Assembly (NCBI GenBank): GCA_030295235.1
Contig: AP026172.1
Location: 186,001 to 250,000 of the forward strand
Reading direction: 5' to 3'
Origin: Fistulifera solaris
Taxonomy: Eukaryota
DNA: 64,000 nt
Numbering within the stretch: the first letter of the stretch is position 1; every line of letters starts with the position of its first letter. A model generated the notes under the pieces. That model was not told the DNA's origin, searched no databases, and saw nothing but the letters and a program-made list of their open reading frames with translations. The position numbers were made by a program, and so were the translations under genes. This document shows, one piece after another, positions 673 through 5,565 of this stretch.

Positions 673-3561
673 ATGAAGTTCTCTGCAGGCGTTGTTTTGA
701 CACTTTTGGTGTCGCCGGCTTCGACATTCGTGCAAAGGCCTTCATTAGTATTTCAGACGAAGCGGCCAACCTTCCGACATGATCGAAAGAGCAACAATCG
801 GTCGAGCCAATTGCACGCCGTTGAAATTGCGAATGTTTTCACTGCAATTGCGGTGGATCCTGAAGTAGCGACAGCAGCGGCTAACTCGCTCGGTTTGTTA
901 GATGTAGCCGTCTTTCTCGTGCCTTTGACGGCGTTGGCTGCGGGTGCATCAGCAATTTCCCAACGTGATCTCATTCGCAGTGAGATTGATACTACCGAGA
1001 GAACGTTAGCCGAAACAAAAGCTCTTTTGGAAAAGTCGGATCAAACTATCAAGGTAAGAGAGGAAGTAGTTGATGTGACATGAAGTTCTATTGATACTTA
1101 CTTGCTGTTTCCCGATGTGATGCCTAGATATCGTTTGCTACCGCCGCAGCAACCTTTGCTTTGGCGTTCGCCTATGAACTCGGTGTTATATCAATCCCAG
1201 AAACGCCATCGTCTTCGGTATCTTCGTCATCGGAAGTAAATAGAGTGACAAAAGCACAACAAGTGTCAGAAACGAAGGCGCCATCGAAGATTGCTTCACC
1301 CAAGCCGGTGGAGCCCCAAAAACAATTGCCGAAGTAAAAACAGAAAAGCCGAAAGCAACGTCGGATCTGCGTGCTATCCCCCCTGTGCCAGCGCTCGAAA
1401 AGGGACCCGACAACTACGATGCGCTATTTGATAAACTAATCGCACCCAAAGCCGACGAAAAGGTAGAAGCAAAAGAAGCGGTAGTCGATCAACCAAAAGA
1501 AAAGGAGGAATTGTCGGAACAACAACCCAAGGAGGGTATTGTTGATTCACTCCTTCCCAAAGCAAAGGAAGAGGCAATTGTAGAGACAAAGGATGAGCTT
1601 CCGAAAAAAATGCTAAACGAGGTTATCCCCGAGCAGATTAAAGAGCAAGGTGGAGTAGTCAATTCGCTCACGTCAAAAATCAGCGATGCCAAGGACAGCC
1701 CAAAAGAATCTAAAACGGAGACACCTAAAGAGAAAGAAGGGTTAGTCGATTCGCTTATGTCAAAGCTAAACGAAAATACTAAAGAAGAGACAACGCAAGA
1801 ATCTCCCAAAAGTGCGGCAACAGAACAGGCAAAGCCTAGCGAAGAGTCAAAGGAAGCGACAGAAGATGTTGTCACGGAACTCCCAAAAGCCGAGGTCGCA
1901 AAAGCAGAAACGCAAGAAGTGAAGAAAATTGAAACAAAAGTAGCAGAGGAAGAAGTGAAAAAGACTCCAGAGCAAAAGCCGACCGAAGCAGCAAACGATG
2001 TCCCGAAAGAGGAACAAGAGAAAGAAGAACCGAAGAAGGCTGATGCTATGCCGGCACCCGTAAAGATTGTTGCGCGGGCTCCGGATCTAGAGCCGGCCAA
2101 AGGCGGTGGTGTTGTCGAATCACTTATGCAGAGACTCAATGAGAAGCAGAAAGAAGGGAAAGTTGAGGATGTTAAGCCGAAAGAGTCTGTTGAAGTAAAG
2201 CCGAAGGTAGAATCTGAAGTAAAGCCAAGGGTAGAGTCAACAAAAGAAACAGCTGTGAAAGATAAAACACCTGAACAACCAAAGTCCACTCCGGTGCCGA
2301 AGGAATCTGTTGCCCCCAAGGTAGAACCGACAAAAGAAGTAGTGAAAGCTAAAACACCCGAACCACCAAAATCGTTGATTGCACCGAAGCTTGAAAAGGC
2401 AAAGGAGGATGCAAAAGATAGTAAGACGACAGCTCCTAAAGAACCAGCCAAACAAGTGACTGTCAGCTCAAAACCGGCTTCGCAACCAGCGGCTGCCCCG
2501 GCGTTTGGTCTTGGAGACTCTCAGATGGTCGTTGCCGGTGTTGCTGTTGCTAGTATTGGCTTAGCTGCTATTCTGATCGGATCCGGCGATGACAATGGAT
2601 CGTCTCCATCCTCTACGCAGCCAAGTAGCACACAGGGAAACAGCAATCCTCCGTTTGGTCCTCCTCAAAAATCTCCCAGAGTGCCCAAGCCTTCCGACGC
2701 ATCGTACCTCAACAGTCTCACGCGGGAAGAAACTGCTTTGAAAAACAAAGGGCAAGTTCGCGGTTCTTACCTCGATGTTATTGACGACACATCAGCATCT
2801 TCCAGATTAAAAGGGAAGAAGAGCATGAACAGTCCCTATCTTGAATCACTTCCAAACATTAAGCTCAACTCGGTACCTGCTGGTCAATCAAAGGTGCCAC
2901 CGCCGGCTAAAGTGCAGCAGCCTCCGCCGCCCCCGCATCCAAGGCCTGAAGCACTAAGACCTCAGCCTGTCCCTGAAGTTCGTCAACCTATTCCCCCGTC
3001 GCCCCAATCGCAATTACAACAGGCAATGCCACCGGAGCCTGTAATGTCCGAACCAAAGCCAGAACCTCAAAATCTTTCGCCCGAGCCTCGAAGCAATAGC
3101 GGAGGATATTTAGGTGCACTTTCTAACGCGCCAGGAATGCCTCCACCAGGACCGAAGAAGAGCTTCAGTCCCATGGGTAGAAAGTACTCCTCGGAAACTT
3201 CCGGCACAGGGGCGAGTTCCTATCTCGACAGCATGTCATCGAGAACATTTTCGCAACCACCCAGTTACAACAGCCCGCCGCAAAATCCGCCACCATCACC
3301 GAGTAACGCTTCCTTCGATCCGAATGGCTCTTTGGGACGAGGTATGTCTAGCTCTCCACCCGGAACACAATTTGGTTCTTCCCCGGGTCCTCTCCGAATG
3401 CTCCCATTCCTCCTTCTGGGCCGCCTCCGCCGGCGCGTCCAAGCGGTCCCATTAAAAACTTTAGCCAAATGGGTCGAAGATACACGGCGACCCAAAGTGG
3501 TACCGGTGTGGGATCGTACCTAGACAACATCTCTCCGAGTGAACGGGATAGAACCAACTAA
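673..3561 (+). CDS. Plastid-targeted, membrane-anchored, low-complexity (E/K/P-rich) disordered protein with repeated YL-core motifs; function unknown
   Basis: Signal peptide with ASTF (ASAFAP-like) cleavage motif. GT-AG intron 1054-1127. Three hydrophobic segments (~893-960, 1128-1190, 2525-2581). ORF 1385-3523. Two apparent indels (~1315, ~3388); correcting the second gives the C-terminus ...KNFSQMGRRYTATQSGTGVGSYLDNISPSERDRTN with TAA at 3559-3561. Confidence 0.75.
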
Positions 3562-3945
3562 GACGGTTCTGCCATGTTACCCGACAGCTAGCTTTGAGAG
3601 AGAATATATCAAAAATTAATCGAAGACGGGTTTGCTATTCTTAGTTCAAATAACAGTAGCACGTACAATCAATAGAGCTTTACTTGATTTCCAGTTCAAA
3701 AAAAAGTACGGAGTATTGGTCAAATGAGAACTTGTGCATGTCGCACCGTATCAGTATACCTGAACCGCTGTCTTGAAGTGTAGTCTTGAGTTTTTAGAGG
3801 ACGGTTTGCAGCTAACAAGTTGAAAAGATGAAGCCAAAGATTCCAATTACGAGTATCGACGATGGTACAAAAAAGAAATATCGGCAAGACAGGCAATCAA
3901 CATTGAAAGACTTTCCTGAAACCTTGATACGTTGAAATTGATAGC

Positions 3946-5565
3946 ATGATGTCTTTGCTGCAGCGCAGTGTCCTTGTCGGTATCGTGCTGCAAGTTTGCT
4001 TTGTTGCGCAAGCCATCGCATTTACTGCCGGCTGGCATACCCAGCAGCATGCTGCTCTTGCTCTGCGAAGAGAACGATCGTCTACTACAGAGCTAGCATT
4101 CTTCCGTAAACTCTTTCGAAGCAACAAAAACAATCTGCACCTTCAGCACCGGAACCGGCACCAACACGCTCCAAACGCATTTCAGTCGAGCCCGCGGATC
4201 TCTGTGTCATCGGTGGCGGAGTGAGTGGCCTCGTGGCGGCAGCCGAAGCTGCCAAAAAGTCCCCTAAAGCGAAAATCATTCTTCTAGAAGCCGAGGAAAT
4301 GCTCGGTGGTCGTGTTCAGTCCGACAAAACACCCGATGGCTTCATTCTTGATCGTGGCTTTGCTGTCTTTATTGAAGACTATCCAGTGGCAAGAACGGTT
4401 CTTGACTATGAGCAGTTGAAATTGAAGCCCTTCTTACCCGGCGCTCTCGTCAAAATTACCGAAACAAGCAGTTTAGTACGGGTGGCTGATCCATTGCGAC
4501 AACCGGAAGAGTTGTTGACTGCTTTATTTGCGCCGGTCGGGACCTTTGTCGACAAAATGCGTCTCTTGCTTTTGATTCAACACGCTTTATCCACACCTGT
4601 TGAGAACCTATTCACGGAGAATGAAACAGACACCGAGACGGAACTGAAAGAAAGATGGGGACTCAGTGATACGTTCATTGATCGTTTCTTCCGTCCCTTC
4701 CTCGAAGGAATCTACCTTGCTCCTCTCAATGAACAGTCGTCTCGAATGTTTAATTTTATCTTCAAGATGTTCTCAACAGGTGCTGCTACCTTACCAGCTG
4801 GAGGAATGGGCGCCATTGCGGAGCAGTTGGCATCGAAAGCGAAAGAGGCGGGTGTCGACCTTCGCACCAATTCTCCAGTGGCCAACGTACGAAAAGAAGA
4901 AGACGGTTATGTCATCACCACGGAAATCGGCAAAACTACAATTCGTGCCAAGAACGTCGTCGTTGCCACCGATGGAGCTGCTGCTCAAAAGCTATTGTCG
5001 CAAATTAACGGACTCGAAGAGCTTGCGGGCAAGCCTGAGCAACCTCAACGTCAGGTGATGTGCATGTACTATGCCTTTGATGCTCCGGCTCCTGTCGAAG
5101 AGCCTATTCTTATCCTCAATGGAGTGATCGGCAAACGAGGAACTCCGGAATGTCCTGTAAACAATGCATGCTTCCCTTCTGTCATCAACGAGGGGTACGC
5201 CCCGGAAGGAAAGGGACTTTGCAGTGTTACCATTCTGAAAGACATGATGGACGCTTATGAAGGTAAAGAAGGTGACCTCGACAAAGCTGTTCGTGAGCAA
5301 CTCGGAACGTGGTTTCCTGAAATCAAGAACGATATTCTCAGCAAGTGGGAACTGAAGGGCACTTACAAAATCAAAAACGCCCAACCAGCTCAACTGGGCG
5401 GCCCCTTTCCCGCCAGCATTAACGGCGGAAGAAGTCCCACGACTTACAGGGGGAGTCCTCCCGCAAGGACTGCTGGTTTGCGGTGATCACATGGCAACCG
5501 CCACGCTAAATGGCGCATTAGAGAGTGGGCTCCGTGCCGGCGAAGCTGCAGCTAAATTGCTATGA
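3946..5565 (+). CDS. FAD-dependent oxidoreductase, amine oxidase/phytoene desaturase/PPOX-like family, probably plastid-targeted
   Basis: Signal peptide + AIAF. Rossmann motif DLCVIGGGVSGL (~4195-4230), then LEAEEMLGGRV and DRGFAVF. C-terminal CGDHMATATLNGALESG lies in a shifted frame, stop TGA 5563-5565. Two apparent indels. Confidence 0.85.

Follow-up and report, generated by a model that had tools for sequence, protein, structure and literature searches.

What does a long gene of the diatom Fistulifera solaris encode, and to what could the product be attached inside the cell? The gene in question occupies positions 673-3561 of the forward strand of a stretch of 64,000 nucleotides (GenBank assembly GCA_030295235.1, contig AP026172.1, positions 186,001 to 250,000), which is called here the window and whose numbering is used throughout. 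A first reading made from the letters alone, referred to below as the original prediction, had described a disordered protein with a bipartite plastid presequence, three transmembrane-like segments, a long E/K/P-rich spacer and a Pro/Ser-rich tail with six short motifs and a duplicated unit, and had proposed it as a tether between the pyrenoid and a membrane. The translation matches at 100% the deposited protein FisN_6Lh380, of 938 residues, annotated as "hypothetical", which is present in the databases yet uncharacterised. Its homeolog, FisN_6Hh380, has 954 residues and an identity of 81-86% (86% across the full alignment). The analysis presented here leads to the tentative proposal, given somewhat less than an even chance, that FisN_6Lh380 belongs to a small family of diatom proteins that are imported into the plastid, anchored in a membrane and mostly disordered, and that would act as tethers or scaffolds of the pyrenoid matrix. 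Taken as a whole, the original prediction stood as to the architecture and the unit duplicated across a frameshift, whereas the bridge that it had drawn to the linker PYCO1 did not.

Two classes of repeated motifs

The tail of FisN_6Lh380, in which P and S account for 21% and 17% of the residues, contains all six xxYLxx[LIM] motifs of the original prediction, at the same positions as in that reading (Table 1); a pattern search on the 6-residue cores gives positions 3 nucleotides later than the 7-residue forms listed there. Six of the nine tail tyrosines are found within YLxx[LIM]. In composition-preserving shuffles of the 325-residue tail, the mean number of motifs was 0.04 and none of 20000 shuffles reached the six observed. 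When the core YL pattern was searched in the six frames of the 64-kb window, it occurred six times in FisN_6Lh380 and once elsewhere. The interpretation of this motif as a YxxΦ sorting signal was rejected, the +3 position being occupied by Ser in most copies. The last two motifs are carried by a duplicated unit of about 30 residues (residues 802-831 and 901-930), the copies of which share 18 of 30 residues and 53 of 90 nucleotides. This duplication has a BLOSUM62 score of 98, while 2000 shuffled tails gave 47 at most, and its second copy lies in another frame of the window, as had been predicted.

A second class of motif, absent from the first reading, is located in the spacer. This region is indeed rich in E, K and P (K 16%, E 15%, A 11%, P 10%, V 10%), and K, E, V, P and A make up together 62% of its residues. 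It is interrupted by five amphipathic copies of ΦΦ[DNE][SA]LΦx[KR]Φ. Four strict copies were observed where 0.00025 were expected, a number reached by none of 20000 shuffles. These motifs are kept in the homeolog, and three copies are present in the Amphora orthologue described below as well as in an Amphora-like metagenome contig. Since the core ΦΦ[DNE][SA]L is common to the motifs of the spacer and of the tail, FisN_6Lh380 can be considered as a chain of eleven such elements.

The conservation of these elements was examined by a HMMER scan of FisN_6Lh380 against 1.84 billion representative proteins, with a cut-off of E<=1e-3. It returned 11 proteins, namely the query, nine short open reading frame (ORF) calls of at most 205 residues matching only residues 1-136, and a single full-length protein, the orthologue P004789 of Amphora coffeiformis (EukProt EP00977, 777 residues). 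This protein has the same plan, with a signal peptide ending in ..SSAF, a hairpin domain, an acidic PEVK-like spacer, a strong transmembrane helix and a basic tail. Its spacer motifs are SVYDSLMSRL, SFFDSMMQKI and SIVENLVDKV (three against 0.016 expected) and its tail motifs STYLDSL, TSYLGSM, SSYLGAL, VAYVDAL and GSYLDSL. The strict Fistulifera tail pattern occurs four times in this tail against 0.02 expected (a value that none of 20000 shuffles attained), and all five tail tyrosines lie within Y[LV]xx[LM]; conservation in orthologues, which the original prediction had named in advance as a check of its reading, was thus observed. The spacing of the tail motifs is 21, 23, 90 and 38 residues in Fistulifera, then 99 up to the extra, duplicated copy, and 22, 30, 94 and 39 in Amphora. 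The two tails are only 23% identical, and amid this divergence the Amphora protein constitutes an independent replication of both classes of motif, of their order and of the tail spacing. In the comparison with the homeolog, 87 of the 93 motif residues are identical, versus 551 of the 675 other residues of spacer and tail. The three full-length proteins keep the same charge pattern, with an isoelectric point (pI) of 5.2-5.5 for the spacer and 9.8-9.9 for the tail.

A further relative of the Amphora orthologue was found at 1787-2242 and 2550-3572 of the metagenome contig mentioned above (L001), which contains the spacer motifs and ends before the third hydrophobic segment (TM3). Its exon-1 ORF continues with VRVYDQ.. 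at the intron position of FisN_6Lh380, and the ORF calls of the HMMER scan continue likewise with V[RS].. past the end of exon 1, so that the position of the intron is common to the relatives. Upstream on L001, positions 2-934 hold an unrelated acidic Lys-rich ORF. Another scan of metagenome contigs gave no relatives. A word-based search with the Fistulifera tail at near lengths yielded only the two Fistulifera homeologs among at most 8000 candidates, a list probably crowded by low-complexity words, a search with the Amphora N-terminal domain at near lengths yielded only itself, and the Amphora tail had no match at E<=10 among shorter proteins. Within these searches, the family appears to be narrow.

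The structure predicted by AlphaFold2 from the three-sequence alignment has a mean predicted local distance difference test score (pLDDT) of 36, and FisN_6Lh380 is therefore taken to be mostly disordered, as the original prediction had it. Past residue 150, the model nevertheless has nine helices, of which one corresponds to TM3 and eight coincide with the motifs (Table 1): four of the five spacer motifs are helical in the model, and the motifs at residues 264, 786 and 923 are not. In these models, the distribution of helices is that expected of short motifs folding on binding. The ESM Atlas gave no usable feature matches for residues 40-160 and 585-938, the structural neighbors being generic helices (model pLDDT 0.39).

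Gene model, presequence and membrane anchor

FisN_6Lh380 begins with an ATG at 673, ends with a TAA at 3559-3561 and has a coding part made of two exons split by a 74-nucleotide GT..AG intron (Table 1). The run that covers it best, with contigs of up to 24 kb, reads through this intron unspliced and without any difference, and behaves therefore as DNA. Judged from its sequence, FisN_6Lh380 is an intact nuclear gene. The protein contains neither Cys nor Trp in its 938 residues. The locus tags of this gene and of its homeolog were not found in the literature searched, and a search with the motif strings produced, among the matches listed, nothing relevant by title.

The window reads FisN_6Lh380 in three frames, two homopolymer runs being one base short when compared with the deposited protein; the annotated protein and the homeolog both read across the two sites. 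At the second site, an extra C follows position 3380 in all the aligned contigs of two runs (X1, 34.1/34.1; X3, 21.9/21.9). This frameshift is consequently an assembly error of the window: once the C is restored, the frame at 3381-3384 reads FGSSPGSSPNAPI, as in the deposited protein, and the correction by which the second copy of the duplicated unit had been made visible was justified. At the first site, the contigs listed comprise only one of the homeolog type, with an extra C at 1313. The frame that stays open for 699 codons 3' of this site, and its conservation, argue that the first frameshift is also an error. The opposite situation, in which the shift at 1318-1322 would be real, the L copy being recently broken and reduced to its 194-residue N-terminal part while the homeolog remains functional, is considered very improbable. 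The contigs listed at this site do not include the haplotype of the window, and the gene model of the L copy rests on DNA contigs; yet the site is read through in the deposited protein, a homopolymer error is proven for the other frameshift, and about 690 codons stay open downstream, 80-88% identical to the homeolog and with the motifs kept. Run X3 is labelled as a wetland metagenome, and it has contigs that are 85-99% identical to the FisN_6Lh380 gene, belong to both homeolog types and include a form with a 69-nucleotide insertion at 3007-3017, which suggests that this sample contains a Fistulifera-like diatom.

The signature of plastid import in diatoms is an ASAFAP-type motif behind the signal peptide, the aromatic +1 residue of which is needed for reaching the stroma, before a transit peptide that is basic and hydroxylated. 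FisN_6Lh380 has a bipartite presequence of this type (signal peptide, Phe/Trp/Tyr/Leu at +1, basic hydroxylated stretch), judged by reading and alignment, in which the ER-type signal peptide MKFSAGVVLTLLVSPAST precedes F and a basic stretch rich in Ser and Thr. The signal gives way to a small residue and to Phe in all 11 family N-termini (nine alignment rows, the homeolog and Amphora), with ASTF, ASAF, VASF, AFSF, ADGF, VSAF and SSAF as variants of the cleavage site. Residues 1-50 share 84% identity with the homeolog and 18% with Amphora. Plastid targeting, as first proposed, is well supported by these N-terminal sequences. The best match of the N-terminal profile in the PDB is the precursor of PsaR, from its signal peptide to its first transmembrane segment, at a weak E-value of 0.17 that only illustrates the layout of such a presequence and segment.

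The membrane segments were delineated by Kyte-Doolittle (KD) hydropathy with a 19-residue window and a threshold of 1.4. Three hydrophobic segments follow the signal peptide, at residues 64-97 (maximum 2.04), 130-151 (1.62) and 591-615 (2.46), in agreement with the number originally announced. Only TM3 is a robust transmembrane segment by this measure, because the first one falls below 1.4 in the Amphora orthologue, and the prediction of three such segments was upheld only to that extent. TM3 is identical in the homeolog (20 of 20 residues). The first two segments form a conserved, moderately hydrophobic helical hairpin, 37% identical in Amphora. Helix 1 was also considered as a lumen-targeting signal, a possibility that was discarded, since this helix lacks a basic n-region and position -3 is Arg or Leu in several orthologues. 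A stromal tail would place the acidic spacer of 440 residues in the lumen, or vice versa; the charges beside TM3 do not decide, and the positive-inside rule, applied to the whole arms, favors a stromal (or cytosolic) tail.

Table 1. Positions in the window of the features of FisN_6Lh380, with the observations on which they are based.
Feature	Position	Strand	Basis or remark
Exon 1 (residues 1-127)	673..1053	+	Codes for presequence, hydrophobic helix 1 and beginning of connecting helix; translation equals FisN_6Lh380 N-terminus
Signal peptide MKFSAGVVLTLLVSPAST	673..726	+	Phe19 (727-729) next, at predicted +1
Transit-peptide-like stretch, basic, Ser/Thr-rich, poorly conserved	727..822	+	Sequence reading and alignment
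Hydrophobic helix 1 (residues ~72-96), invariant P84, A87, L88, A94	886..960	+	Hydropathy and alignment
Intron, 74 nucleotides, GTAAGA...TAG	1054..1127	+	ORFs of relatives and contig L001 continue V[RS].. there
Exon 2 (residues 128-938)	1128..3561	+	Two single-base gaps in window sequence
Hydrophobic helix 2 (residues 130-150)	1134..1196	+	KD 1.62; Amphora 1.63
Acidic E/K/P/V/A-rich disordered spacer (residues 151-593; pI 5.2, net -11)	1197..2524	+	Composition and structure prediction
First frameshift, A-run one base short (protein VEPQKTIAEV)	1318..1322	+	Comparison with annotated protein
Spacer motif 1, DNYDALFDKL	1409..1438	+	Aligns with Amphora SVYDSLMSRL; predicted helix 221-232
Spacer motif 2, GIVDSLLPKA	1535..1564	+	Pattern match
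Spacer motif 3, GVVNSLTSKI	1652..1681	+	Pattern match; predicted helix 297-313
Spacer motif 4, GLVDSLMSKL	1739..1768	+	Pattern match; predicted helix 332-346
Spacer motif 5, GVVESLMQRL	2108..2137	+	Predicted helix 455-470, highest pLDDT of the protein (54-67)
TM3, MVVAGVAVASIGLAAILIG (residues 594-612)	2525..2581	+	KD 2.46 (Amphora 2.37); predicted helix 591-612
Basic Pro/Ser-rich disordered tail (residues 613-938; pI 9.8, net +10)	2582..3558	+	Composition and structure prediction
Tail motif 1, ASYLNSL	2699..2719	+	Predicted helix 652-667; DPC2-like stretch starts
Tail motif 2, GSYLDVI	2762..2782	+	Predicted helix 675-684
Tail motif 3, SPYLESL	2831..2851	+	Predicted helix 697-700; DPC2-like stretch ends
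Tail motif 4, GGYLGAL	3101..3121	+	Pattern match
Duplicated unit, copy 1 (GPKKSFSPMGRKYSSETSGTGASSYLDSMS), holds tail motif 5	3149..3238	+	Predicted helix 825-828
Tail motif 5, SSYLDSM	3215	+	Within duplicated unit copy 1
Second frameshift, C-run one base short, assembly error	3381..3384	+	Extra C after 3380 in contigs
Duplicated unit, copy 2 (GPIKNFSQMGRRYTATQSGTGVGSYLDNIS), holds tail motif 6	3445..3534	+	Alignment
Tail motif 6, GSYLDNI	3511	+	Within duplicated unit copy 2

The next gene downstream in the window (3946-5486, forward strand) opens with a plastid-type signal (..VAQAIAF, then T), and its product is a flavin amine oxidoreductase (PF01593, matched by 4299-5486 with E=2.8e-30). The ORF of the N-terminal part (3946-4224) is out of frame with the oxidoreductase domain, which could be due to a further homopolymer assembly error or to an intron.

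Candidate partners and rival explanations

In the mechanism proposed here, the motifs of the tail and of the spacer would be short helices that fold on binding, and a single anchored chain with five or six such sites would make a multivalent tether. Such a tether would keep a soluble assembly of the plastid at one of its membranes, and the partner of the tail would be the pyrenoid matrix, that is, Rubisco or a matrix protein. The pyrenoid matrix is put forward as the most likely partner because the tail has the character of a linker (disorder, a pI of 9.8 and repeated helical stickers) and resembles the pyrenoid protein DPC2; this tethering to the pyrenoid or to Rubisco is nonetheless rather doubtful.

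The likeness to DPC2 comes from Pfam, in which a single family, PF25195 DPC2 ("Diatom pyrenoid component 2"), was matched at E<=10 by the three full-length proteins, with E-values of 0.027, 0.0047 and 4.4e-5 and scores of 15.3, 17.8 and 24.3 bits for FisN_6Lh380, its homeolog and the Amphora orthologue, respectively. This sole match is limited to the region of the YL motifs: it spans SYLNSL..PYLESL (residues 653-702, profile positions 45-96) and the corresponding part of the Amphora protein. DPC2 is likewise the sole match of two distinct fragments that contain motifs (E 0.056 and 0.18), and five motif-less or spacer fragments have no Pfam match, window 1400-2200 included (0 families). FisN_6Lh380 is not a member of the DPC2 family, the likeness being, as far as the alignment goes, at the level of the motif. 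In the accessible part of the preprint that describes it (bioRxiv 10.1101/2023.10.26.564148), DPC2 of T. pseudonana is an abundant, pyrenoid-only and Rubisco-interacting matrix protein, a hub of the interaction network, and is presented there with no mention of a membrane anchor, whereas FisN_6Lh380 is anchored. It is conceivable, if unlikely, that [ST]YL[DNG][SA][LM] is a diatom motif for pyrenoid addressing or for binding to the Rubisco matrix, common to the DPC2 domain and to FisN_6Lh380.

The original prediction had reached the pyrenoid by another route, the resemblance between KSFSP and the KWSP motif of PYCO1, and this link had to be abandoned. KSFSP and KNFSQ occur once each in FisN_6Lh380 and are not conserved in Amphora, where FSP is absent, and FisN_6Lh380 has no Trp. 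According to the available text of PMC10288592, PYCO1 (Phatr3_J49957) is the disordered Rubisco linker of Phaeodactylum tricornutum, with a pI of 10.03, its small-subunit sticker KWSPRGGS needs Trp, and variants of its large-subunit-binding helix (AAEWGSMNQ, ASEWASMNT) are reported by its authors in other proteins; the accessible part of a review (PMC13655443) adds that PYCO1 is not functional with Rubisco of form IC. The two proteins have in common disorder, a basic character (pI 10.03 versus 9.8 for the tail) and short helical or aromatic stickers. GTG..Y is also found in both (GTGYNP in PYCO1; SGTGASSYLD and SGTGVGSYLD in FisN_6Lh380), and the tail motif loosely resembles the large-subunit-binding helix ([AS]xΦxSM); these two echoes may serve as leads only. 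They differ in that PYCO1 is soluble and made of six tandem repeats of about 80 residues with a repeated KWSP[RQ]GGS and its essential Trp, whereas FisN_6Lh380 has one 30-residue duplication, a transmembrane helix and no KWSP. Tandem Repeats Finder detected in the FisN_6Lh380 gene only a 9-nucleotide micro-repeat and no tandem array at the scale of the protein. No PYCO1-like protein was present among the 11 HMMER matches. The tail had no match at E<=10 among the PDB chains, in a copy assumed to contain the PYCO1(452-592) chain, and the same database searched with the Amphora orthologue gave low-complexity noise only.

A parallel in design is offered by RBMP1 and RBMP2 of Chlamydomonas, which are Rubisco-binding membrane proteins that share the motif of EPYC1 and tether the matrix to the tubules. 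Both they and FisN_6Lh380 combine transmembrane anchoring with several short helical motifs on a disordered region, and TM3, by hydropathy only (KD 2.46, and 2.37 in Amphora), supplies the anchor characteristic of such tethers. There is no sequence relation between them: the green motif is based on Trp and Arg, whereas FisN_6Lh380 is devoid of Trp, and the plastid lineage differs, FisN_6Lh380 belonging to the red lineage with form ID Rubisco. The combination of a transmembrane anchor and a repeated short motif has been proposed to link the pyrenoid matrix and the membranes that traverse it (bioRxiv 10.1101/2023.10.26.564148, available text). As to the spacer, its K/E/V/P/A composition and predicted disorder recall the PEVK region of titin. 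This likeness is one of composition only and not of homology, and the spacer differs from PEVK in being broken by five conserved amphipathic motifs.

Several observations weigh against a pyrenoid tether. The DPC2 scores, of 12-24 bits, stay far under the gathering cut-off of 70 bits, and the corresponding HMMER E-values, for which five natural fragments served as controls, may be optimistic on biased, repetitive sequence. A C-terminal fragment with a single motif had no DPC2 match, and a motif shared with DPC2 can be suggested only from the residues that the match spans. TM3 separates the spacer from the tail across the membrane, which leaves only one class of motif able to face the stroma. 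The family was seen only in Fistulifera, in Amphora and in a few metagenome or run contigs, and the scan of 1.84 billion representatives contained no Phaeodactylum or Thalassiosira protein at E<=1e-3; for this reason it cannot be a general part of the diatom pyrenoid. Finally, the polyproline runs and the basic tail would also suit the cytosolic tail of a membrane protein of the secretory pathway.

Two rival explanations are to be weighed on these grounds. FisN_6Lh380 might be a scaffold of a plastid membrane with motifs that bind a partner outside the pyrenoid, the likeness to DPC2 being due to short amphipathic helices that converged by chance; this is a serious possibility, though itself held with some doubt. 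Its role could be the spacing or architecture of thylakoids, through a PEVK-like entropic spacer lying between the hairpin and TM3, and its partners could also be antenna or photosystem assemblies, the nucleoid or the division machinery. All the evidence of architecture and conservation fits such a scaffold equally well, as do the DPC2 scores lying far under the cut-off, a spacer motif class that is unlike DPC2 and the absence of the family, in the HMMER scan, from model diatoms that possess a pyrenoid. What this explanation does not account for is that the three orthologues resemble a single Pfam family, that of a pyrenoid protein, and precisely on the YL stretch; moreover, no search of the ESM Atlas or of the PDB pointed to any alternative partner. 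The other rival abandons the plastid. FisN_6Lh380 would then be a secretory-pathway membrane protein of raphid pennates, a group to which both Fistulifera and Amphora belong, residing in the plasma membrane or in the silica deposition vesicle, with an acidic spacer that is lumenal or extracellular and a basic polyproline tail whose motifs recruit cytoskeletal or trafficking factors in the cytosol. A cleaved signal peptide followed by three spans would indeed leave the tail (net +10 to +14) in the cytosol and the spacer outside, in accordance with the positive-inside rule, and cytosolic proteins linked to actin often contain polyproline runs. This explanation is nevertheless judged quite improbable, as the Phe found in 11 of 11 N-termini after the signal peptide, with its basic Ser/Thr-rich stretch, is the signature of plastid import, and FisN_6Lh380 has no Cys and no match in Pfam to a frustule or adhesion domain.

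Significance for the diatom pyrenoid

A large share of global CO2 fixation takes place in diatom pyrenoids, the organization of which is poorly understood. The accessible portions of the literature on these organelles describe the linker PYCO1, restricted to pennates, a shell made of protein and several matrix proteins without an assigned function, and name no protein that ties the thylakoid penetrating the pyrenoid to the Rubisco matrix. In the available text of a 2026 review (PMC13655443), the word "tether" has 0 occurrences, and none of the newer papers listed by a search deals, by title or abstract, with such a protein. FisN_6Lh380, which is anchored and has five or six conserved, predicted helical, DPC2-like motifs, is a concrete and mutable handle on this question of how the thylakoid is attached to the matrix. 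If, as was called unlikely above, [ST]YL[DNG][SA][LM] is a pyrenoid motif shared with DPC2, this protein and its orthologues would be the first matrix-to-membrane tether in a pyrenoid of the red lineage, and the logic of the Chlamydomonas organelle, in which one sticker is shared, would have arisen independently in diatoms. Even with another partner, the family would remain a clear example of short linear motifs fixed in order and spacing within a drifting, disordered plastid protein.

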